Part shown: positions 5,685-15,755 of the stretch, in pieces
Position numbering within the stretch: the first letter of the stretch is position 1
How the letters are laid out: each line of letters starts with the position of its first letter
From: a virus
Lineage: Duplodnaviria > Heunggongvirae > Uroviricota > Caudoviricetes
Direction: 5' to 3' (one strand)
DNA length: 15,755 nucleotides
IMG/VR virus record: IMGVR_UViG_2690316188_000011
Made by a program: the position numbers and the translations under genes
Notes under the pieces: model-generated
What the model saw: the letters and a program-made list of their open reading frames with translations, nothing else
Told to the model about the DNA's origin: nothing
Databases searched by the model: none

Positions 5685-5708
5685 AAGGCCGCCTGTGCGG
5701 CTTTTTTT
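5685..5708 (+). terminator. Hairpin plus T-run in the D-E intergenic region (attenuator/terminator-like)
   Basis: GCCGC (5688-5692), loop CTGT, GCGGC (5697-5701), then TTTTTTT (5702-5708). Sits in the 55-nt D-E gap, the same spacing as lambda. Confidence 0.4.
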
Positions 5709-5721
5709 ACGGGATTTTTTT

Positions 5722-5997
5722 ATGTCGATGTACACAACCGCCCAGCTGCTGGCGGCAAATGAGAAGAAATTTAAGTTTGATCCGCTGTTTCTGCGTCTCT
5801 TTTTCCGTGAGAGCTATCCCTTCACCACGGAGAAAGTCTATCTCTCACAAATTCCGGGACTGGTAAACATGGCGCTGTACGTTTCGCCGATTGTTTCCGG
5901 TGAGGTTATCCGCTCCCGTGGCGGCTCCACCTCTGAATTTACACCGGGATATGTCAAGCCGAAGCACTTAGCATGGCTTTCTGAGGCTTTCGTGTAG
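5722..5997 (+). pseudogene. E: Major capsid protein gpE, truncated: 83 N-terminal codons then unrelated sequence and a stop
   Basis: ATG 5722 gives MSMYTTAQLLAANEKKFKFDPLFLRLFFRESYPFTTEKVYLSQIPGLVNMALYVSPIVSGEVIRSRGGSTSEFTPGYVKPKH, colinear with lambda gpE (341 aa in lambda). After codon H83 (ends 5966) the frame reads LAWLSEAFV-stop, which is not E sequence. Downstream DNA is AT-rich and leads into the integrase gene. Confidence 0.85.
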
Positions 5998-6129
5998 TTG
6001 CTGGTTTTTACACTTAATCTTTTGATAATAAAGAATAAGTTTATCTGGTGCTTTCACTGAATTTTCCTCGTTATCTGTGTGTTGCAATCATCTCTGTATT
6101 GCAGCTTGTATTGCTTTTTGGGGCTAAAA

Positions 6130-7365
6130 ATGGCTGGCGAGAACAAACTGAGCGACAAAGCGCTTAAAGGATATCTGGGGAAACCCAGAGAAAAGCAGAT
6201 CACCATTGCTGATGGAAAGGGGCTTTCTATTCGTGTGAGTACTAAAGGGGCTGTGAGCTTTGTTTTCTTCTACAGGTTAGCAGGTGGCCGGGCTGCTCCG
6301 GTCTGGCTAACGTTGGGTAAATATCCTGATATGTCACTCAAACAGGCAAGGGAAAAGCGCGACGAGTGCCGTGGTTGGTTGGCTGACAAACGTGATCCGC
6401 GTATCCAGATTAAGATTCAGGCTGAAGAACGCTTAAAGCCGGTCACAGTGGAGGATGCACTAAATTACTGGTATGAAAATTACTGTAAGGTGCGTCGTAA
6501 AACTCATGCTGTAACGCTTGGCAGATTTCGAAAGCATATCTTTCCCTATATCGGTCATTTGCCCGTAAATGACACTCACCTATATGAATGGCTGGACTGT
6601 TTTGACCGAATTAAACGTAATGCACCAGTTATGGCGGCGTATGTTTTTTCTGACACTAAATTAGCTCTTCGTTTTTGTCGGGTACGCCAGTACGCGACGT
6701 GTGATGCTTTAAAGGATTTGCGCATGAGTGATGTGGGGCAGATTGCAGGTAAGCGGGATCGGGTTCTGGATGAAGCCGAACTCGGCCAGCTCTGGAAGGC
6801 AATTTTTGTCGAGCCTGATTTAAAACTAATGTCTGAATACACGCGAAAAATGTTTGTGCTTTGTACAGTATTTGGATGTCGAATGAGTGAAGCCCGATTA
6901 TCAGAATGGAGCGAATGGGATCTCGAAAGTTGGGTTTGGACTGTACCAAAAGATCACTCAAAAACTGGTGTTGAAATCGTCAGACCAGTACCTGAAATTC
7001 TACGACAGTGGGTAACGGATGTTCACGAAGAGACAAAACATACTGGTTATGTGCTGGGAAGTCTGCGAATTAGAGAAAGCGTAAGCAAGATTGGGGGGAA
7101 AATCGGTAAACGTTTGGGCCATGAAAAACAATGGTCACTACACGACCTTAGAAGAACGCTATCTACTCATCTAAGTGATCTCGGTGTTGAATTTTATGTA
7201 GTAGAACAACTGTTAGGCCATGCGCTACCTGGCGTGGCAGGTGTTTACAACCGGAGTAAGTTTATGGCTAAAAAACTGGATGCTCTGGAACTCTGGACTA
7301 CATATCTCAATAGCATCGCAGGTGCTGATTCAAAAGTGACAATCCTCAAACAAAAGGCTGGTTAA
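6130..7365 (+). CDS. int: Tyrosine recombinase / integrase, P4-family (PICI / CP4-57-like)
   Basis: Catalytic signature residues are visible: R in GCRMSEARL, H-x-x-R in SLHDLRRTL, H in LLGHALPG, Y in GVYNRSKF. Basic N-terminal arm-binding-like domain (MAGENKLSDKALKGYLGKPREKQITIADGKGLSIRV). Start placed at ATG 6130 rather than the upstream ORF-track start at 6079. Confidence 0.9.
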   Translation: MAGENKLSDKALKGYLGKPREKQITIADGKGLSIRVSTKGAVSFVFFYRLAGGRAAPVWLTLGKYPDMSLKQAREKRDECRGWLADKRDPRIQIKIQAEERLKPVTVEDALNYWYENYCKVRRKTHAVTLGRFRKHIFPYIGHLPVNDTHLYEWLDCFDRIKRNAPVMAAYVFSDTKLALRFCRVRQYATCDALKDLRMSDVGQIAGKRDRVLDEAELGQLWKAIFVEPDLKLMSEYTRKMFVLCTVFGCRMSEARLSEWSEWDLESWVWTVPKDHSKTGVEIVRPVPEILRQWVTDVHEETKHTGYVLGSLRIRESVSKIGGKIGKRLGHEKQWSLHDLRRTLSTHLSDLGVEFYVVEQLLGHALPGVAGVYNRSKFMAKKLDALELWTTYLNSIAGADSKVTILKQKAG

Positions 7366-7366
7366 C

Positions 7367-7588
7367 ATGAAAAAAATGGCAATTGTCGATAAAAAGGGTC
7401 TGGAGTACATTCCTAATATCGATCGTATGATCCGTGAGAAAGAATGTCGGGAGCTAACCACTCTTGCGAACAGCACACGCTGGAAGCTGGAGAAGGAAGG
7501 AAAATTTCCTAAGCGGATCAAGATTGGTTCCACTGCTGTTGCATATCGTCTTTCAGAAGTGCAGGCATGGATTAGGGGAGAGTGGTAA
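7367..7588 (+). CDS. alpA: AlpA-family HTH regulator / excisionase-like protein
   Basis: 73 aa; core ELTTLANSTRWKLEKEGKFPKRIKIGSTAVAYRLSEVQAWI fits the AlpA/MerR-like winged-HTH pattern. Lies immediately after int (stop TAA 7363-7365, start 7367), the usual int-alpA arrangement of Gram-negative PICI/P4-like elements. Confidence 0.8.
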   Translation: MKKMAIVDKKGLEYIPNIDRMIREKECRELTTLANSTRWKLEKEGKFPKRIKIGSTAVAYRLSEVQAWIRGEW

Positions 7589-7607
7589 GAATTTAGACAG
7601 TGGATGT

Positions 7608-7634
7608 AATCCTATGGGGTAAACCCATAGGATT
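7608..7634. terminator. Hairpin between convergent genes (candidate bidirectional terminator)
   Basis: AATCCTATGGG (7608-7618), loop GTAAA, CCCATAGGATT (7624-7634): perfect 11-bp stem. Lies between the alpA stop (7588) and the stop of the leftward 449-aa gene (7640). No strong T-tract on either side, so terminator function is uncertain. Confidence 0.4.
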
Positions 7635-7639
7635 TGAAA

Positions 7640-8989
7640 TCACTTAAATTCAAATACGTGCGTAGTTGATGAGATTATATAATTAGGTGGTAAGTATTGA
7701 ACTATTTCTCCATCTTCTTCAAAAATATGAATAACTCTTGGGAATAATTCAGGGCGTATAGGATTTAATGCCTTCGGATTATGAAACATGTATATTGCTG
7801 TACACCATGGTTCTTGATATGAAGGTGCATTGACAAGAGCAGTAAAAGGCATTGGGGTACAGCCTTCATCAGTTTTAATACCTCTAACGATGGATTTGAC
7901 ATTTTTTTGTTCAATCCCTGCCACTACTCCCATCCTATCAAATTTTGGGATGGTGGCATGTGTCGCAAGTAATATGGCTGAGACATTCTCATTTTTATTA
8001 GAGCCGAAAAAATTAGATTGTATACTTCGATTTTCAAATAAATGTTGTTCAATTTTACTTCCAGAATCCATATCTACACCATACAGATAGCTTTGTAGTG
8101 CTGGCATTGATATACTCATCGAAAATCTGCGTGAGTAATCGTGTAAAGCAATAATGAAAGGCTTTCCTTTTGTATGATCTAGTTCCCAATAGCATAATTT
8201 TAAGGGTTCAGGTTTATGCCTAACTTTCTTTAATAGAGTGCGGGCAAATTTGAATGGCATTTGTTCTTTTACATATCTCTGAAGATCTTCTACTGCCTCA
8301 TGATCAAGTATCAATTTCTCGGTAGGTTCCTCTTGTTCTGCAACTGTGGCAGCTTCTACAGCAATATCAATGCCATTTTTTGAGATAATATAATCAGGTT
8401 GAGCATAATCTCTGCATATTACGAAATCCATTTCGTAGAAAACTGCGTTTAGATAAAGTTCGAATAAGCGAGAGTTAAATGAAGCACTCTGGAAATCTCT
8501 GATGAATATTCCATCAGGATCTTTACACCAATAAGCTAACTCTTGCATAACAATAAATGCAGGATAGTGTTTGGGTTCCTCAAGTAGCATTCTTAGATAA
8601 ACGTTTTTTTTATGTTCTGGAACTTTGGCTAGGAATATTGAAAATGCCGACTCTGATTCGTCACCCTGTATAAAACAACCGTTCTTGTGTAGTGATAATA
8701 GCTCTGGTATGGCTTTTTCCATATCAGTAATTAAATCATCTTTAGATTCACGGGATACAATTACTTTAATCGCTCTAAATTTTTTATCTAAATCCCTACC
8801 TAGAAATATAGCGTTGTAATCATTATCTATTTTACAAAAAACAATTGTTGCTAAGATCGTGACATCATCCTTTATAAATTTGAACCAACAGATTTCCTCC
8901 GAAAAGGTTTTTACGTATGGTGTACGACCATAGAAAAATACATCAAATTGTTCTTTACTGATTTCTAGCATTTTGTGACTTGTTGTCAT
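7640..8989 (-). CDS. Hypothetical 449-aa protein, no family recognised; candidate defence/exclusion cargo
   Basis: Long uninterrupted minus-strand ORF in a visibly AT-rich segment. ATG at 8989 is preceded by AAGGA about 8 nt upstream. Starts 23 nt after the upstream RHH gene stop on the same strand (operon-like). I recognise no catalytic motif with confidence. Confidence 0.7.
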   Translation of the reverse strand: MTTSHKMLEISKEQFDVFFYGRTPYVKTFSEEICWFKFIKDDVTILATIVFCKIDNDYNAIFLGRDLDKKFRAIKVIVSRESKDDLITDMEKAIPELLSLHKNGCFIQGDESESAFSIFLAKVPEHKKNVYLRMLLEEPKHYPAFIVMQELAYWCKDPDGIFIRDFQSASFNSRLFELYLNAVFYEMDFVICRDYAQPDYIISKNGIDIAVEAATVAEQEEPTEKLILDHEAVEDLQRYVKEQMPFKFARTLLKKVRHKPEPLKLCYWELDHTKGKPFIIALHDYSRRFSMSISMPALQSYLYGVDMDSGSKIEQHLFENRSIQSNFFGSNKNENVSAILLATHATIPKFDRMGVVAGIEQKNVKSIVRGIKTDEGCTPMPFTALVNAPSYQEPWCTAIYMFHNPKALNPIRPELFPRVIHIFEEDGEIVQYLPPNYIISSTTHVFEFK

Positions 8990-9012
8990 AGAAGAATCCT
9001 TTATGCAAATTA

Positions 9013-9207
9013 TCAGCCTTTAGGTGTTATTCCTTGTTTTATTAGTTCGGCACGAGCCAGTTCTTTTAGCCAGTTACCTAAGCTCATCCCTTCTTTGGCA
9101 GCGACATTAACCATTTGTTCTTTTAATTCTGGGTTAATACGGACTTGGAATGCTGGTGCTTTACCTGCACCTTTCGGTTGTTTATCACGTTGAATGATAG
9201 TTGACAT
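9013..9207 (-). CDS. Ribbon-helix-helix (Arc/MetJ/CopG-like) DNA-binding protein
   Basis: 64 aa, MSTIIQRDKQPKGAGKAPAFQVRINPELKEQMVNVAAKEGMSLGNWLKELARAELIKQGITPKG. An alternating beta-strand segment (PAFQVRINP) followed by two short helices fits the RHH fold pattern. First gene of the leftward operon; a perfect inverted repeat abuts its start codon. Confidence 0.7.
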   Translation of the reverse strand: MSTIIQRDKQPKGAGKAPAFQVRINPELKEQMVNVAAKEGMSLGNWLKELARAELIKQGITPKG

Positions 9208-9249
9208 GTGTGTACCTATTGCTTAGTATGATTCTTGATAGGTACACAC
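9208..9249. promoter_or_regulatory. Operator-like perfect 12-bp inverted repeat in the divergent promoter region
   Basis: GTGTGTACCTAT (9208-9219) and ATAGGTACACAC (9238-9249) are exact reverse complements, 18 bp apart. The left arm directly abuts the RHH start codon. An extended -10-like TGcTATATA lies at 9265-9273, oriented rightward. Confidence 0.5.
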
Positions 9250-9346
9250 CTTATCATGTTTTATTGCTATATAACAACGCCCTGCAGTGCTCGCAACACA
9301 TACAGGGCGTCTAACCACCAACGATAGCAACAGTATCGAGGTAGCT

Positions 9347-9550
9347 ATGAGAAATCATACCACACACCCGCAAGGGCGGGATTCGCACAACCTGAATAAA
9401 TACATCTGGCGTTTTATCGCCCTGAGCACCGCACAACCACGCGTAATACACATCGAGGCCGCCAGCGAACAGGAAGCCCGCCAGCAATCCCCAACTGGCT
9501 ACGTGATGATATTCGCCGCCCGTATTCGTCAGGAGGTGTGCCGTGCTTAA
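9347..9550 (+). CDS. Hypothetical small protein (67 aa), weakly supported
   Basis: ATG 9347 preceded by GAGG (9338-9341). Its stop overlaps the next gene's start. No recognisable domain. A 98-aa ORF on the opposite strand (9311-9607) overlaps it and cannot be excluded. Confidence 0.3.
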   Translation: MRNHTTHPQGRDSHNLNKYIWRFIALSTAQPRVIHIEAASEQEARQQSPTGYVMIFAARIRQEVCRA

Positions 9551-9728
9551 AACCTTCCGTGTATTTGCCCGAGCTGTTAACCCACTGGGCCACACAATTG
9601 GTATCACTCAGAACGTGAAGGCTGTTAATGTTCAGACGGCTATTGCTGCGGTGAGAAGCGAATCATCAGAATATGGCTTATCACAAGTCATTATTTCAGC
9701 AGTGTATGAATTAAAAGAGGTGCATTAA
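9543..9728 (+). CDS. Hypothetical small protein (61 aa, GTG start)
   Basis: GTG 9543 preceded by AGGAGG (9531-9536) at 6-nt spacing. Stop TAA 9726-9728 overlaps the next ATG (TAATG). Confidence 0.45.
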   Translation: MLKTFRVFARAVNPLGHTIGITQNVKAVNVQTAIAAVRSESSEYGLSQVIISAVYELKEVH

Positions 9729-9919
9729 TGCAGGAAATCACATTACACGAAGCCGCTGAACGTGCGCACCAGACAGAAATTATTTGCCGCCTTCTTGAGG
9801 TATACCCGAACAAAATTACAGATGCTGATATATCCGCGCTGGCGAGCCTACTGGCGCGCCTTTCGGGAAGTGTCGCTAGTTTCCTGATTGAGGAAGAAAG
9901 TAAGCTGGTGGGGGATTAA
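9728..9919 (+). CDS. Hypothetical small protein (63 aa)
   Basis: ATG 9728 preceded by AAAGAGG (9714-9720). Followed immediately by the next ORF (TAA then ATG at 9920). Confidence 0.5.
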   Translation: MQEITLHEAAERAHQTEIICRLLEVYPNKITDADISALASLLARLSGSVASFLIEEESKLVGD

Positions 9920-10141
9920 ATGAATACAGAACGGGAAGTCTTTTTTAAATTGTTAGCATGTGCAGAAAGTTCATTAACTTTAAATAATTCAGCAAAAGCA
10001 ATATTAAATATGTGGCTTGATTGCATAAATGACAATGAAGATGCAAATATTGCTTATGGCCTGTTGTCACTTATTGATGAATCAGCAGAAAAACTCAATG
10101 ACGCAATAAATAGTGCCCTGCTATCAAATAAGTCGAGTTAA
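9920..10141 (+). CDS. Hypothetical small acidic protein (73 aa), markedly AT-rich gene
   Basis: ATG 9920 preceded by GGTGGGGGA (9907-9915). Composition visibly more AT-rich than its neighbours. Product looks helical and acidic (…LIDESAEKLNDAINSALL…). Confidence 0.5.
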   Translation: MNTEREVFFKLLACAESSLTLNNSAKAILNMWLDCINDNEDANIAYGLLSLIDESAEKLNDAINSALLSNKSS

Positions 10142-10158
10142 GTCGAGGAATAAATAAT

Positions 10159-10458
10159 ATGGAAATGAAAAATTCTGGCTTTATTGCCAGCGGCCCCGCT
10201 CGGCCTGAATTTATGAACGGCGATATTTACCGCGATAAATACGGCGGCACGGTAACGATTAAAGGCGTGGCAGAACGGCGCATCACTTACCGCCGTGAGG
10301 GGTATAGCTATGACTGCGTGATGCCTGTTTATCAGTTCCGGCGTGATTTTTCCCTGGTATATGCCGCACCCCGCAGTAAGCCCATCAGCAGGGAAAAAGC
10401 GCGGGGAAACATCCAGAAAATGAAAAGCATGATTAACGCATTCAGGGGCAAAAAATGA
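10159..10458 (+). CDS. Hypothetical 99-aa protein, translationally coupled to the primase gene
   Basis: ATG 10159 with GAGGAA (10145-10150) upstream. Stop TGA 10456-10458 overlaps the primase ATG 10455 (ATGA). Confidence 0.6.
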   Translation: MEMKNSGFIASGPARPEFMNGDIYRDKYGGTVTIKGVAERRITYRREGYSYDCVMPVYQFRRDFSLVYAAPRSKPISREKARGNIQKMKSMINAFRGKK

Positions 10459-12206
10459 AACTGGCACCGAACTTAAAAAAACAGCCACGCGACAGACTGA
10501 CAGAGGTAATCATCTTTGCAGGTAGTGATGCGTGGAGCCATGCGAAAGAGTGGCGGGAATGGGCGGGTAAACATATTGCCGCCGACGATGTGCCGCCTGT
10601 CGTGCTGGCTGATGAGCAACTGAAAAATATCACCGATTACCGGATCATTGATGAAGATCGTCAGTGTGTGCGTGTTTACCGCGCAGGACATATCACAGAG
10701 CACAGCATGACGCAGATTGTTACGTTACTGGCTGTGGCTGGAGTGAAGACCGTACACGAATACGCGGGGATTACTGACACCAGCCCAGTGGATTTATCCG
10801 AGCAGTTGCCGCGACTCAAAGAGGAATGCGAGCGTGGGGAAAGTCTGGTGCTTAATCTTCCGACGAAGCAAAAGGCGCAACTTTCACAGATGGCAGACAG
10901 TGAACGTGCACAACTACTTGCCGATCGCTTTGATGGTGTGTGTGTTCATGCAGAAAGTGAAATCGTCCACGTATGGCGCGGCGGGGTATGGTGTCCGGTC
11001 AGCACAATGGAGCTGAGCCGCGAAATGGTGGCGATCTATTCAGAGCACAGGGCCACGTTCAGCAAACGTGTAATCAATAACGCCGTGGAAGCGTTAAAAG
11101 TTATTGCCGACCCCATGGGGGAGCCGTCCGGTGATTTGCTACCGTTCACTAATGGTGTGCTTAACCTGAAAACGGGGGAATTTTCTCCGCACTCGCCGGA
11201 GCACTGGAGCACCACGCACAATGGCATTGAGTACACGCCACCAGTAGCAGGGGAAAACATCCGCGATAATGCGCCAAATTTCCATAAATGGCTTGAACAT
11301 GCTGCAAGAAAAGACCCGCGTAAGATGATGCGTATATGTGCCGCGTTATACATGATTATGGCGAACCGCTACGACTGGCAGATGTTCATTGAGGCCACCG
11401 GAGACGGGGGAAGCGGTAAGAGTACATTTACCCATATTGCCACCCTGCTTGCTGGCAAACAGAACACCGTAAGCGCGGAGATGACATCACTCGATGATGC
11501 AGGAGGGCGCGCGCAGGTTGTCGGGAGTCGTCTTATCGTCCTTGCCGATCAGCCGAAATATACGGGGGAAGGCACGGGCATCAAGAAAATCACGGGAGGC
11601 GATCCCGTTGAAATTAACCCGAAATATGAGAAGCGATTCACGACGATAATAAGGGCGGTGGTACTGGCAACCAATAACGACCCGATGATCTTTACCGAAC
11701 GGGCCGGAGGTGTGTCACGCCGTCGGGTGATTTTCCGGTTCGACAACATTGTAAGGGAGGACGAAAAAGACAAGGAATTACCGGAAAAGATAGCGGCAGA
11801 AATCCCCGTAATTATCCGCCGCTTGCTGGCTAATTTTGCTGCCCCTGAAAAGGCACGGGCTTTATTACTGGAACAGCGTGACGGTGATGAAGCTCTGGCA
11901 ATAAAGCAGCAAACGGATCCGGTTGTTGAGCTTTGCGCGGCGCTGGAGTTTCTGGAGGAAGCTCGTGGGCTAATGATGGGCGGTGGTGGTGACACCGTGA
12001 AGTACACGACCAGAAACAGCCTTTACCGTGTCTATATGGCCTTCATGGCATACACAGGAAAGGGGAAATGTTTGAGCGTGAATGAGTTCGGAAAGGCTAT
12101 GAGGTCAGCGGCGAAAGTTTACGGATATGAATATATTACGCGAAAAGTTAAGGGAGTCACGCAGACCAACGCAACGACTACTGATGATTGCGATGCGTTT
12201 TTATAA
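10455..12206 (+). CDS. Replication initiator: primase / SF3-helicase fusion (P4 alpha / D5-like NTPase)
   Basis: 583 aa. Walker A P-loop GDGGSGKST in the sequence ...FIEATGDGGSGKSTFTHIATLLAG..., with a Walker-B-like hydrophobic stretch plus acidic residue (RLIVLADQP) downstream. An iteron array follows the stop, as in P4-type and PICI pri-rep/ori modules. Confidence 0.85.
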   Translation: MKLAPNLKKQPRDRLTEVIIFAGSDAWSHAKEWREWAGKHIAADDVPPVVLADEQLKNITDYRIIDEDRQCVRVYRAGHITEHSMTQIVTLLAVAGVKTVHEYAGITDTSPVDLSEQLPRLKEECERGESLVLNLPTKQKAQLSQMADSERAQLLADRFDGVCVHAESEIVHVWRGGVWCPVSTMELSREMVAIYSEHRATFSKRVINNAVEALKVIADPMGEPSGDLLPFTNGVLNLKTGEFSPHSPEHWSTTHNGIEYTPPVAGENIRDNAPNFHKWLEHAARKDPRKMMRICAALYMIMANRYDWQMFIEATGDGGSGKSTFTHIATLLAGKQNTVSAEMTSLDDAGGRAQVVGSRLIVLADQPKYTGEGTGIKKITGGDPVEINPKYEKRFTTIIRAVVLATNNDPMIFTERAGGVSRRRVIFRFDNIVREDEKDKELPEKIAAEIPVIIRRLLANFAAPEKARALLLEQRDGDEALAIKQQTDPVVELCAALEFLEEARGLMMGGGGDTVKYTTRNSLYRVYMAFMAYTGKGKCLSVNEFGKAMRSAAKVYGYEYITRKVKGVTQTNATTTDDCDAFL

Positions 12207-12217
12207 AAAATGGCAAT

Positions 12218-12452
12218 GGTTATCTACCTTGTCTACCTGACTGAAAGAAAATACTTTTATTTCAATGTATTAATGCAGGTAGATAACTATTTTTCACTGT
12301 CTACCTGTTATCTACCTTATCTACCCATTTTTGTAGACAGGTAAGGAGACGGGTAGAGATGAGGTAGACAGCTATTTGGGGCTGTCTACCTCCCTGAAAC
12401 CCGCGCCATTACTGGCCTGATAACTAATCAGGTAGACAAGGTAGACAAGGTG
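12218..12452. repeat. Iteron array: candidate origin of replication
   Basis: About 11 copies of the core TCTACC / GGTAGA (extended TGTCTACC / GGTAGACA) in both orientations, for example 12223, 12232, 12278 (rev), 12300, 12311, 12320, 12352 (rev), 12363 (rev), 12385, 12431 (rev), 12440 (rev). An AT-rich spacer at 12241-12275 may be an unwinding element. Confidence 0.7.
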
Positions 12453-12495
12453 GTGGTGCACAAAAAACTTTTTAAACGAGGGGGTAAAAATAAAA

Positions 12496-12753
12496 ATGCA
12501 CACATCAGGAAAACTGAACAAACATATAAAGCCACATTACCGCGCCCTTGATATGGCTGAACACTGGCTAAGGGTGGCGATTAAGGCAATAGACCGCAAC
12601 GCCGGGGAAGGATACGCGAAAGCACATCCCGAACTGATAAGCGCATTCATGACAACGGCGGCTGCAAACTTTGCCACGCTGACCGAACGGGAGATTGCTG
12701 AAGCGGAGGAAGTGACAACAATCAATATTAAGTCCGGAGAGCAGGCAGCATGA
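12496..12753 (+). CDS. Hypothetical 85-aa protein, translationally coupled to the SSB-like gene
   Basis: ATG 12496 with GAGGGGG upstream. Stop TGA 12751-12753 overlaps ATG 12750 of the next gene. Confidence 0.5.
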   Translation: MHTSGKLNKHIKPHYRALDMAEHWLRVAIKAIDRNAGEGYAKAHPELISAFMTTAAANFATLTEREIAEAEEVTTINIKSGEQAA

Positions 12754-13199
12754 CGGCGCAAATATCAGTTTACGGGCGGTTGGTGGACGACCCGCAGACA
12801 AAACAGACCAGCAAGGGCACCCCCATGACGCTGGCGCGTATGGCGGTATCACTGCCCTGCAGTCAGTCGGATGACGGTCTGGCGACGTTGTGGTTATCTG
12901 TCCTGGCGTTTGGCAGACAAGCCGACGCGCTGGCAAAGCATCACAAAGGCGAACTCCTGAGCGTGGCGGGTAACATGCAGATGAGCCAGTGGACTGGACA
13001 GAACGGCGAAACGCGGCAGGGCTGGCAGGTTATCGCAGACAGCGTAATCAGTGCGCGATCGGTGCGACCGGGCGGCAAAAAAGGCCAACAGGGGCAGGCT
13101 ACTGACGCACTGAACAGAGCAAAACAACAGGCAGATCAGCAAGGAAGCCAGCCACCAGAGGGAGATAATGAGCAATGGGGAGATGATATCCCGTTTTAA
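12750..13199 (+). CDS. Single-stranded DNA-binding protein (SSB-like OB fold with acidic C-terminal tail)
   Basis: 149 aa. N-terminal pattern ISVYGRLVDDPQTKQT...WLSVLAFGRQAD resembles the SSB OB fold (VxGRL..DPE ... W..V..FG). Gly/Gln-rich linker and C-terminus ...EQWGDDIPF, which matches the conserved SSB tail motif DDDIPF. Confidence 0.75.
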   Translation: MTAQISVYGRLVDDPQTKQTSKGTPMTLARMAVSLPCSQSDDGLATLWLSVLAFGRQADALAKHHKGELLSVAGNMQMSQWTGQNGETRQGWQVIADSVISARSVRPGGKKGQQGQATDALNRAKQQADQQGSQPPEGDNEQWGDDIPF

Positions 13200-13415: not shown

Positions 13416-14456
13416 ATGGTTGATTTATATTCGCCTACCCAGCTTGTACAGGTGGTTAATGCTGTAGATGTACAAAAACAACTAAATGCGTTGTTTACCA
13501 GTTTGTTTTTTACTCGCTCGGTAATGTTTGGATCGCGCGATATTATTCTTGATACAATCGACGATCCAAATATCCCAATTGCAGCGTTTTGTTCTCCTAT
13601 GGTGGGTAGTAAAGTTTCACGTGACGAAGGGTACGAATCAAAAACAATTCGTCCAGGCTATATGAAGCCGAAAAGCAGCATTGATCCAAATAAGTTAGCT
13701 GTGCGCCCTGCTGGTGTATCACCTGAGCAATACAATGCTTTTGGGGCGCGTAATATTAAAGTTAAACAGGCGATTGTAAATCAAGCTAAAGCTATTCGTG
13801 CACGTATTGAATGGCTTGCCGTTCAGGCAATCACAACGGGGAAAAATATCATTGAGGGCGATGGTATTGAACGTTATGAGCTGGACTGGAATATTAAACC
13901 ACAAAATATCATCACTCAGTCTGGCGGTACTGAGTGGTCAGGTAAGGATAAAGAAACTTTTGATCCAAATGATGATATTGAGAGCTACGCAGAATTTAGT
14001 GAGGGCGTCACTAATATCATCATTATGGGCGGTAATGTATGGAAGAAATACCGTTCATTCAGAGCGATAAAAGAGGCTCTGGATACCCGTCGTGGTTCTA
14101 ATTCCGAACTGGAAACGGCCCTTAAAGACCTTGGTGATTCGGTGAGTTTTAAAGGATATATGGGCGATGTTGCGATTGTTGTTTACAGCGGGCGTTATAC
14201 CGACGAGGACGGAACTGAAAAACATTTCCTTGATCCTGATTTGATGGTGCTTGGCAATACGGCTCTTCAGGGGATTGTCGCCTATGGCGGTATTCAGGAT
14301 CCGGAGCTAATCCGAATGGGGCTGACTAAAGCCGAACTTGCACCGAAAAACTATATTGTGCCTGGTGATCCGGCTATTGAATATGTGCAGACACATTCAG
14401 CACCACAGCCAATACCGGCCCGCATCAATCGTTTTGTTACCGTTCGCATTGGCTAA
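13416..14456 (+). CDS. Major capsid protein, lambda gpE family, divergent paralogue
   Basis: From ATG 13416 (AGAGGA at 13405-13410): MVDLYSPTQL...RPGYMKPKS...NIITQSGGTEWSGKDKETFDPNDDIESYA...YRSFRAIKEALDTRRGSNSELETALKDLGDSVSFKGYMGDVAIVVYSGRY...MVLGNT... Colinear with lambda gpE as I recall it (E has NITQSGGTEWSKRDKSTYDPTDDIEAYA...FRSFKAVKEKLDTRRGSNSELETAVKDLGKAVSYKGMYGDVAIVVYSGQY...MVLGNT) but clearly diverged. The ORF-track start at 13203 is rejected because it runs through a hairpin and a non-coding-looking leader. Confidence 0.85.
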   Translation: MVDLYSPTQLVQVVNAVDVQKQLNALFTSLFFTRSVMFGSRDIILDTIDDPNIPIAAFCSPMVGSKVSRDEGYESKTIRPGYMKPKSSIDPNKLAVRPAGVSPEQYNAFGARNIKVKQAIVNQAKAIRARIEWLAVQAITTGKNIIEGDGIERYELDWNIKPQNIITQSGGTEWSGKDKETFDPNDDIESYAEFSEGVTNIIIMGGNVWKKYRSFRAIKEALDTRRGSNSELETALKDLGDSVSFKGYMGDVAIVVYSGRYTDEDGTEKHFLDPDLMVLGNTALQGIVAYGGIQDPELIRMGLTKAELAPKNYIVPGDPAIEYVQTHSAPQPIPARINRFVTVRIG

Positions 14457-14465
14457 GGGGGAGCA

Positions 14466-14807
14466 ATGGCTACTCATTACACTGAACTCATGGCTGGCAC
14501 TGAAGCACTGGTGACTACGCTGGGGATATTTTCAGCTAATAAAGGGGTAATTCCTGCATTTACGCCACTGATGCAGGAAGATGCAACAGGTGCACTGGTG
14601 GTATGGGATGGTTCGAGCGTAGGTAAAGCGGTTTATGTTTCCGCTGTACAAATCGACACCGCGAAAAAAACACAGGCTCAGGTCTATAAGACAGGTGTCT
14701 TAAATGTTGATGCTCTGAACTGGCCTGAGTCTGTAAAAGAACTGTCAGTAAAGATTGCAGCGTTTGTTGGCTCAGGTATTTCTGTTCAGCCGCTGGCTCG
14801 TGTGTAA
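14466..14807 (+). CDS. Head decoration protein, gpD-like, divergent paralogue
   Basis: 113 aa. Shares the gpD landmarks TPLM, WDG, YK(S/T)G, WPE and AF.G..IS (…AFTPLMQEDATGALVVWDGSSVG…QVYKTGVLNVDALNWPES…AAFVGSGISVQ) with lambda D (…[22 protein letters not shown]…[18 protein letters not shown]…[11 protein letters not shown]). RBS AAGGGGGAG. Confidence 0.75.
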   Translation: MATHYTELMAGTEALVTTLGIFSANKGVIPAFTPLMQEDATGALVVWDGSSVGKAVYVSAVQIDTAKKTQAQVYKTGVLNVDALNWPESVKELSVKIAAFVGSGISVQPLARV

Positions 14808-14818
14808 AGGGGGATACA

Positions 14819-15202
14819 ATGCAAAATGATTACAATGACCTTAAGCCAATTGCCGAAATGATGTACCCGAATCCAGCTGTAGAGGAATTAAAAGCTATCG
14901 CTGACAAAATGTGTTTAAGCGAGCGCCTTGTTGATATGAATCAGGTGATGGAAATTACAACCCTGAGTCGGCGTACACTGCTAAACCTTGAGGCTAGTGG
15001 AGAGTTCCCGGAGCGTGTGCAGGTTACGGAAGGGCGTAAGGCCTGGTATTTAAGTGAAGTGATCGACTGGATAAATAATATTCCTCGCGCTTCTGAATAT
15101 TGCCGCGTACCTGTCCCAAAAAAGCCAGATGCGGCGCTATGCCTCAAGATTGAGCGTGTACGCCGCAATGCACGGGATGGTCGCTATAAGCTGATTGGTT
15201 GA
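14819..15202 (+). CDS. AlpA/MerR-like winged-HTH protein next to cos; candidate packaging-redirection (Rpp-like) factor
   Basis: 127 aa. Central segment MNQVMEITTLSRRTLLNLEASGEFPERVQVTEGRKAWYLSEVIDWI fits the AlpA / Nu1-N-terminal HTH pattern. Last gene before cos; RBS AAGGGGGA as in the two capsid genes. Confidence 0.55.
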   Translation: MQNDYNDLKPIAEMMYPNPAVEELKAIADKMCLSERLVDMNQVMEITTLSRRTLLNLEASGEFPERVQVTEGRKAWYLSEVIDWINNIPRASEYCRVPVPKKPDAALCLKIERVRRNARDGRYKLIG

Positions 15203-15227: not shown

Positions 15228-15447
15228 CGGGTCCTTTCCGGCGATCTGACAGGCTACGGGGCGTCAGGCGCGCGGATTTTCGCTATTTATGAAAATTTTC
15301 CGGTTTAAGGCGTTTCCGTTCTTCTTCGTCGTAACTTAATGTTTTTATTTAAAATACCCCCTGAAAAGAAAGGAAACGACAGGTGCTGAAAGCGAGCTTT
15401 TTGGCCTCTGTCGTTTCCTTTCTCTGTTTTTGTCCGTGGAATGAACA
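15228..15447. other. Lambdoid cos packaging site (cosQ-like, cosN-equivalent 15259-15270, cosB with R3/R2/R1 Nu1-binding elements)
   Basis: Colinear with the lambda right-end/left-end junction as I recall it. cosQ-like GGGTCCTTTCCGGCGATCTGACAGGCTACG. cosB CGCGGATTTTCGCTATTTATGAAAATTTTCCGG... with CGTTTCC at 15311-15317 (R3), GGAAACG at 15372-15378 (R2) and CGTTTCC at 15412-15418 (R1); R2 and R1 form an inverted repeat (GGAAACGACAG / CTGTCGTTTCC). Ends at the Nu1 start codon. Confidence 0.8.
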
Positions 15448-15755
15448 ATGGAAGTCAACAAAAAGCAGCTGGCTGACATTTTCGGTGCGAGTATCCGTAC
15501 CATTCAGAACTGGCAGGAACAGGGAATGCCCGTTCTGCGAGGCGGTGGCAAGGGTAATGAGGTGCTTTATGACTCTGCCGCCGTCATAAAATGGTATGCC
15601 GAAAGGGATGCTGAAATTGAGAACGAAAAGCTGCGCCGGGAGGTTGAAGAACTGCGGCAGGCCAGCGAGGCAGATCTCCAGCCAGGGACTATTGAGTACG
15701 AACGCCATCGACTTACGCGTGCGCAGGCCGACGCACAGGAACTGAAGAATGCCAG
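15448..15755 (+). CDS. nu1: Terminase small subunit gpNu1, 5' portion (continues at 1-323 across the circular junction)
   Basis: ATG 15448 gives [102 protein letters not shown], matching the lambda Nu1 N-terminus. It runs off the window end in the same frame in which position 1 enters. Confidence 0.95.
15671..15755. repeat. 85-bp terminal overlap identical to bases 1-85 (circular closure of the record)
   Basis: Exact identity of 15671-15755 with 1-85 (CAGATCTCCAGCCAGGGACTATTGAGTACG...GAAGAATGCCAG). Reading frames are continuous across the join. Confidence 0.9.

Follow-up and report, generated by a model that had tools for sequence, protein, structure and literature searches.

An iteron array directly 3' of pri-rep as the probable replication origin of a helper-embedded phage-inducible chromosomal island in a lambda-like prophage

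The window analyzed here, the whole 15,755-nucleotide stretch of the virus record IMGVR_UViG_2690316188_000011, is Escherichia coli chromosome that carries a phage-inducible chromosomal island (PICI) within gene E of a lambda-like prophage. A dense array of short repeats (iterons) was found immediately 3' of the pri-rep initiator gene of this island. We assign the array as the vegetative replication origin of the island, a Gram-negative helper-embedded PICI (HE-PICI), with a probability of about 0.9, because of its close homology to a tested element. In the E. coli PICI EcCICFT073, a segment containing rep and ori maintained a temperature-sensitive plasmid at the restrictive temperature, and deletion of rep or ori removed or lowered this activity (PMC6092414). 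The origins of E. coli PICIs have been described as two sets of iterons around an AT-rich region, directly 3' of pri-rep (PMC6092414). Alignment of the window with the intergenic region of EcCICFT073 demonstrated that the two arrays are colinear, with invariant iteron cores (TCTACC/GGTAGA) and drifting spacers.

The exact iteron TGTCTACC occurred six times in the window, every time inside 12230-12447. The chance expectation for the whole window was 0.28, and six or more copies were observed in 0 of 200 dinucleotide-preserving shuffles. When up to one mismatch was allowed, 21 sites were detected across the window, of which 12 fell within 12221-12447 as a cluster and 9 were dispersed singles. 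The array thus comprises twelve copies, six exact and six with one mismatch, divided equally between the strands, and the longer iteron consensus is YTRTCTACCT. A first-pass annotation of this DNA had reported a dense bidirectional iteron array directly downstream of a primase/helicase gene, at 12218-12452. This description and its coordinates proved accurate, with the first iteron 15 nt past the stop codon (ending at 12206) of the open reading frame (ORF) at 10455-12206; the estimate of about eleven copies is corrected to twelve. The components of the array are as follows, plus denoting TGTCTACC read on the top strand.

12221, plus: iteron TATCTACC
12230, plus: iteron TGTCTACC
12278, minus: iteron TATCTACC
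12298, plus: iteron TGTCTACC
12309, plus: iteron TATCTACC
12318, plus: iteron TATCTACC
12332, minus: iteron TGTCTACA
12352, minus: iteron TCTCTACC
12363, minus: iteron TGTCTACC
12383, plus: iteron TGTCTACC
12431, minus: iteron TGTCTACC
12440, minus: iteron TGTCTACC
12221-12325: left six-iteron module (12221 plus, 12230 plus, AT-rich spacer, 12278 minus, 12298 plus, 12309 plus, 12318 plus)
12332-12447: right six-iteron module, an inverted counterpart of the left one (12332 minus, 12352 minus, 12363 minus, 12383 plus, spacer, 12431 minus, 12440 minus)
12238-12277: AT-rich 40-nt spacer (23% GC), candidate DNA-unwinding element
12394-12420: GC-rich conserved non-iteron block CTGAAACCCGCGCCATTACTGGCCTGA in the right spacer, near-invariant in six E. 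coli/Shigella PICI origins

The sites are arranged as two inverted six-site modules within approximately 230 bp. The left module consists of two tandem sites 9 bp apart, followed by a 40-nt spacer, a single opposed site and three further sites in tandem; the right module mirrors this order, running from three tandem sites and an opposed site to a 40-nt spacer and a closing tandem pair. The outer tandem pairs form an inverted repeat (I2) with 21-nt arms that are 95% complementary, and since the array is dyad-symmetric, its strand folds far better than shuffled sequences (z = -6.95). Two sites lie to the left of the AT-rich spacer and ten to its right, while the mirror spacer (12391-12430) is 50% GC. 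Repeats flanking an AT-rich core, as originally described, are therefore present, but the flanking is asymmetric and the overall plan is that of two inverted modules. Where relatives had TTCACC-type iterons, this right spacer was AT-rich instead.

Examination of the whole island and prophage of a reference genome revealed no other cluster of TGTCTACC-type sites, leaving a single 227-bp cluster. Neither a sigma-70-type promoter nor an intrinsic terminator was detected in 12100-12600. There was no credible ORF within the array, where the short ORFs were iteron-derived junk, and no enrichment of DnaA boxes or IHF sites in the array region, which contained a lone IHF-like site with one mismatch (12260-12272). 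An Rfam scan of the whole window returned zero families, and C4/isrK likewise gave no match; such matches occur in some HE-PICIs (PMC10111431).

The gene preceding the array encodes the candidate initiator, with the following features.

10455-12206, plus: Pri-Rep initiator gene, 583 aa, with an N-terminal Toprim-like domain, D5_N, superfamily 3 (SF3) helicase (DUF5906) and a C-terminal origin-binding domain
11913-12188, plus: C-terminal winged-helix origin-binding domain (aa 487-578), matched by phmmer to PDB 1KA8

Pri-Rep was 80% identical over 583 aa to the Pri-Rep of EcCICFT073, which was located in the CFT073 genome; the N-terminal 136 aa were far more divergent than the remainder. Pfam analysis detected D5_N, DUF5906 and Pox_D5. 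Residues 137-578, spanning the SF3 helicase and the origin-binding domain, were 41% identical to residues 321-762 of the phage P4 alpha protein (E = 2e-115). By phmmer, 92 residues of the C terminus matched PDB 1KA8, the solved C-terminal domain of P4 alpha (E = 2.2e-7), and the helicase region matched the chain of PDB 7OLA (E = 4e-15), which carries the deposited name "DNA primase". The first-pass annotation had interpreted the repeats as an initiator-binding origin and the island as its own replicon. Both proposals are supported by the Pri-Rep identity, the colinear tested array, the 1KA8 homology and the co-variation of the iterons with the binding domain described below.

Its naming of the gene as a primase fared less well, as homology supported the helicase and initiator assignments but the P4 primase domain was absent. 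The N-terminal domain of Pri-Rep is a Toprim-like fold of about 130 aa, with the invariant motifs VIIFAGSDAW and VYRAGH. Comparison of this domain at the sequence and profile level with the P4 primase domain (alpha 1-320), Pfam and NCBIfam yielded no match. Toprim catalytic motifs are EGxxD and DxD, and E. coli DnaG has DGDRAG. On inspection of the sequence, the Toprim-like domain seems to lack both the catalytic Glu and the acidic pair of DxD. "Primase" is thus an inherited label, and the annotation of these proteins is probably wrong; since the canonical acidic motifs were not seen, primers are more likely to be supplied by host DnaG.

A 661-bp query comprising the gene end and the array detected relatives in 571 of the 5426 complete E. 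coli genomes searched. When each species was represented by a single genome, 80 further loci were recovered, giving 84 examined in all. At 46 of these 84 loci, an octamer specific to the locus was present in eight or more copies within the 420 nt after the gene. The complete orientation pattern (two plus, one minus, three plus; then three minus, one plus, two minus) was present in twelve arrays, and most others fell short by one site. Among relatives, the array spanned 227-244 bp with spacers of 35-43 nt. The equivalents of the left spacer, also 35-43 nt, had a mean GC content of 0.23 in 19 canonical arrays; in 16 of these, the right spacer was the more GC-rich of the two. This layout recurred 3' of alpha-type genes across Enterobacterales and Aeromonas, behind both 583-aa PICI-type proteins and proteins of 770-840 aa with a P4-type primase domain. 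At least ten iteron classes were distinguished (TGTCTACC, TATCTACC, TCTCTACC, CCTCTACC, TGTTCACC, TGTACACC, TGTCCACC, TGTCCGCC, TGTATACC and ACCCTACC), many of them fitting TGTNNACC. In O157:H7 islands the architecture was kept and CCTCTACC replaced TGTCTACC. A search of phage and plasmid collections recovered zero phage records and three doubtful plasmid records, and a literature search for the string TGTTCACC returned nothing but primer noise.

The iteron sequence co-varied with the C-terminal domain of the initiator. Gly546 of the window Pri-Rep occupies the first turn of predicted helix 3. Loci whose iterons have a C at position 2 encoded Ser at the 546 position in six of six cases, drawn from four separate lineages, and a purine at position 2 was accompanied by Gly at 28 of 31 loci. 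The sequence and length of the wing hairpin that follows helix 3 (563-572 in the window, KVKGVTQTN) tracked the central iteron dinucleotide, with the wing KG-x-TQTN pairing with CTACC and K-x-G-IRSN with TCACC. On an otherwise TCACC-type backbone, a five-residue wing insertion coincided with a switch from TCACC to CTACC.

Initiator and iterons also changed together between islands. A blastn comparison of the island with 11capE of E. coli NRG857c, the founding HE-PICI, defined one replaced segment.

7586-12542, plus: replication and accessory cassette swapped relative to 11capE, with flanks 98-99% identical

The Pri-Rep of 11capE has 606 aa, is 47.6% identical to that of the window, and is followed by nine CTGTTCAC iterons in the same layout. 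Thus, near-identical backbones carry different Pri-Rep proteins and iterons, indicating that initiator and iterons were exchanged as one cassette. A C-terminal domain that reads the iterons would lead one to expect such an exchange.

We propose that, after induction and excision, Pri-Rep, which belongs to the P4 alpha family of SF3 helicases, would bind the 8-10-bp iterons (YTRTCTACCT) through its C-terminal winged-helix domain. Each six-site module is laid out like P4 ori, with a tandem pair, a spacer of about 40 nt, an opposed site and three tandem sites. Occupancy of the iterons would concentrate Pri-Rep and, we infer, melt the left AT-rich spacer at 12238-12277. The hexameric helicase could then be loaded, probably as one hexamer per module, leading to bidirectional replication; the unwound strands would be coated by the island SSB, with priming probably by host DnaG. 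A broader synthesis joins four elements: a dyad-symmetric double loading platform of two P4-ori-like modules, each loading one SF3 hexamer as at papillomavirus and SV40 origins; a dead Toprim domain with host DnaG-dependent priming; TGT-NN-ACC specificity set by two small winged-helix elements, the wing and the opening turn of helix 3; and exchange of initiator-origin cassettes, through which PICIs and P4-like satellites would fall into incompatibility-like replicon classes. As a whole, this synthesis is possible but doubtful.

Other roles for the array were also weighed. It might be a replication enhancer like P4 crr, with initiation elsewhere in the island or prophage. P4 offers a precedent, as crr adjoins the 3' end of alpha and contains type-1 repeats with 9-bp tandem spacing, while ori lies 4.7 kb away. 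P4 crr is bound by the same protein as ori (GenBank annotation and general knowledge). However, the left module copies the layout of P4 ori, AT-rich spacer included, rather than the crr unit. Because the island and prophage contain no second iteron cluster, and because rep and the intergenic region alone sufficed for replication of EcCICFT073 (PMC6092414), we regard an enhancer with a distant start site as highly unlikely. The repeats could alternatively be operators through which Pri-Rep or another regulator controls the genes for the 85-aa protein, SSB and capsid, instead of or besides forming an origin. The array does lie in a unidirectional string of genes with no terminator, right upstream of a strongly conserved leader, and it is general knowledge that plasmid iteron initiators commonly autoregulate through inverted iterons. 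Yet the array follows the initiator gene rather than preceding it, the scan of 12100-12600 gave no sigma-70-like promoter, and twelve sites in a fixed 230-bp architecture with an AT-rich spacer are more than an operator requires. Given in addition that the corresponding segment of the relative has replication activity (PMC6092414), the chance of an operator role is very slight.

A packaging site (an accessory to cos or pac) or a recombination site, such as binding sites for terminase or arm-type sites for integrase, was considered as well. Such a role would be in keeping with the need of satellites for a packaging signal and with the binding of repeated arm sites by this integrase family, but the island has a separate cos-like region at about 15250-15460, and the doubled TGTATTGC motifs at the island ends differ in sequence from the iterons. 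Further, the iterons track the C-terminal domain of Pri-Rep and not int, which is 99% identical in 11capE, where the iterons are different. A packaging role was rejected on the position of the cos-like region, and an integrase arm-site role on both motif and location; the likelihood of either is close to nil.

Several observations weigh against assignment of the array as the origin, or against parts of the proposed mechanism. Deletion of ori in EcCICFT073 "significantly reduced", rather than abolished, colony formation (PMC6092414). The function is transferred to the window from an initiator that is 80% identical and an origin region that is about 78% identical. In P4, replication depends on both ori and crr, two iteron regions that lie apart, so a second cis element is conceivable here, though the island has no second cluster. 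The right spacer is not AT-rich in the window, and the symmetric double-hexamer picture is incompletely mirrored in the sequence. The Gly/Ser rule is violated at two loci (L083 and L085), where the consensus at that iteron position is weak. Finally, the full-length AlphaFold model was built on a shallow alignment, with all of the homologues listed at least 79% identical, and is usable only at residues 1-129; the helicase and C-terminal domain were poorly modeled (predicted local distance difference test score [pLDDT] < 50). The co-varying residues were therefore assigned to helix 3 and the wing from predicted secondary structure and 1KA8 homology.

By its gene content, the host element is an HE-PICI of the type published for 11capE, and it is inserted in gene E of the lambda-like prophage. 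The left part of the window contains lambda-like terminase, portal, protease and gpD genes and the first approximately 90 codons of gpE. The island begins at about 6000, co-oriented with prophage gene E, and an Icd-like gene lies between its accessory genes and DUF4222. Features of the window outside the array and pri-rep are listed below.

5695-5997: N-terminal fragment of gpE, matching Phage_cap_E profile positions 1-78
6079-7365, plus: integrase (int)
7367-7588, plus: AlpA
7640-8989, minus: 449-aa ORF, in the opposite orientation to all other island genes; only match phrog_8571
10159-10458, plus: DUF4222 gene, its 3' end overlapping the Pri-Rep start, an arrangement shared by every E. coli PICI examined
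12464-12495, plus: leader of the following gene with its ribosome-binding region, AAAACTTTTTAAACGAGGGGGTAAAAATAAAA, invariant in the alignment of E. coli/Shigella PICI origins; ATG at 12496
12496-12753, plus: 85-aa conserved protein (phrog_1231) of the replication module, syntenic in EcCICFT073, Nissle, O157 and 11capE
12750-13199, plus: SSB gene (Pfam SSB, E = 2e-15)
about 13416-14456: island gpE-like capsid gene
14466-14807: island gpD-like decoration gene
14819-15202: second gene of the AlpA family (127 aa; phrog_2790, excisionase/regulator), closing the late module just ahead of the cos-like region
about 15250-15460: cos-like region, about 90% identical to the prophage cos region, terminase-binding flank included

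As in Gram-negative PICIs, int, alpA and pri all lie on the plus strand of an island of about 11 kb that has a cos-like region (the class spans about 10-20 kb and has a helper-type cos), and, as in HE-PICIs, the island is embedded in, and co-oriented with, a late gene of the prophage. In a reference genome (strain 10; L001, region 7688-19882), the island is about 11 kb and the C-terminal fragment of gpE resumes after it. The doubled TGTATTGC motif was found at both ends of the island in this genome (8061/8073 and 18995/19007); such doubling on both sides of att is an HE-PICI signature (PMC10111431). The identity block at the att junction is AGCCGAAGCA, which is listed in the supplement of the same study for islands at capsid-E position 80 (PMC10111431). 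Within the cos-like region, the cosN core is altered, reading GGGGCGTCAGGCGCGCGG in the island versus GGGGCGGCGACCTCGCGG in the prophage and EcCICFT073, and lambda cosN was absent from the island at up to two mismatches. The second AlpA-family gene is additional to the AlpA gene beside int. Strain 10 carries DUF2971 and SWIM genes in the place of the 449-aa ORF, marking this as a variable accessory slot, possibly a defense slot. In the surrounding prophage of that strain (L001 20334-25811), several tail genes are annotated as frameshifted and an IS1 lies just upstream of ydfO/ynfO/nohA; the helper prophage in this genome may therefore be defective.

Collectively, these results describe the island as a self-replicating phage satellite, whose copy number after induction would therefore be independent of the surrounding prophage. 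This independence is relevant to the competition in which a helper-embedded satellite prevails over its helper. The template of six plus six iterons should aid in spotting origins 3' of alpha-type helicase genes, the co-variation amounts to a provisional code for protein-DNA recognition in this initiator family, and the comparison with 11capE indicates that replication cassettes swap between otherwise near-identical islands. The HE-PICI configuration was described in 2023 (PMC10111431). The type of origin and the type of island are both already described, so that novelty is confined to comparative details and the current understanding of PICI and P4 replication is unchanged.

Among known systems, EcCICFT073 was the closest counterpart of the origin. 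The two share the position 3' of pri-rep, the iteron words TGTCTACC/TATCTACC/TCTCTACC, an AT-rich spacer between iteron sets, and neighboring genes (DUF4222 upstream; the 85-aa gene, SSB, capsid and decoration genes downstream). However, EcCICFT073 lacks the inner site found at 12332 in the window, and it occupies a chromosomal att site, whereas the island of the window lies inside a prophage capsid gene. A second close counterpart, with the same insertion site, was Eco567.11capE of E. coli NRG857c (L088, NC_017634 1198800-1211000; PMC10111431). It shares the gene E site at profile position of about 80, the doubled TGTATTGC motifs and the gene order, with the int module 99.4% and the late module 98.1% identical; it differs in its P4-type TGTTCACC iterons and in its att block, AACCCAAGCA versus AGCCGAAGCA in the window. 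The origins of the staphylococcal islands SaPIbov1 and SaPI1 (SaPI, Staphylococcus aureus pathogenicity island) lie directly 3' of rep, have iteron sets around an AT-rich region and use an SF3 self-loading helicase as initiator (PMC6092414). The likeness in layout follows that published description; the SaPI iterons are unrelated and sequence similarity is confined to the helicase core, the region with the 7OLA match.

Comparison with P4 (NC_001609) demonstrated a homologous helicase and origin-binding domain, octamers of the TGTNNACC form and a repeat region that directly follows the initiator gene. The first-pass annotation had held that both P4 and PICIs place ori after the primase gene; this is correct for PICIs, but in P4, according to its GenBank annotation, that position belongs to crr. 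The six type-1 repeats of P4 ori have offsets of 0, 10, 21, 43, 86 and 96 (three tandem, opposed, AT-rich spacer, two tandem). The corresponding offsets were 0, 9, 20, 40, 88 and 97 in the left module (reverse complement) and 0, 20, 31, 51, 99 and 108 in the right module. Orientations were equal, and spacing nearly so, between P4 ori and each half of the window array, and the PICI origin looks like two P4-ori modules joined head to head. This resemblance sits awkwardly with the remark that the layout is common to no other bacterial replicon (PMC6092414). In contrast to the window, P4 has the iteron TGTTCACC, from which TGTCTACC/TATCTACC differ at positions 4-5; its origin is bipartite, with ori and crr far apart where the window has two modules within 230 bp; and its alpha protein carries a 320-aa primase domain that is absent from the window Pri-Rep.

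The island had also been distinguished from the lambda ori, and the O gene that contains it, on the ground that O is absent here. This is true but trivial, because the window holds just the late genes of the prophage. Lambda ori and the iteron plasmids R6K, pSC101 and P1 likewise have repeated initiator sites beside an AT-rich unwinding region. Unlike Pri-Rep, however, lambda O, Pi and RepA are non-helicases of unrelated sequence that recruit host DnaB, and lambda ori lies within the O gene.
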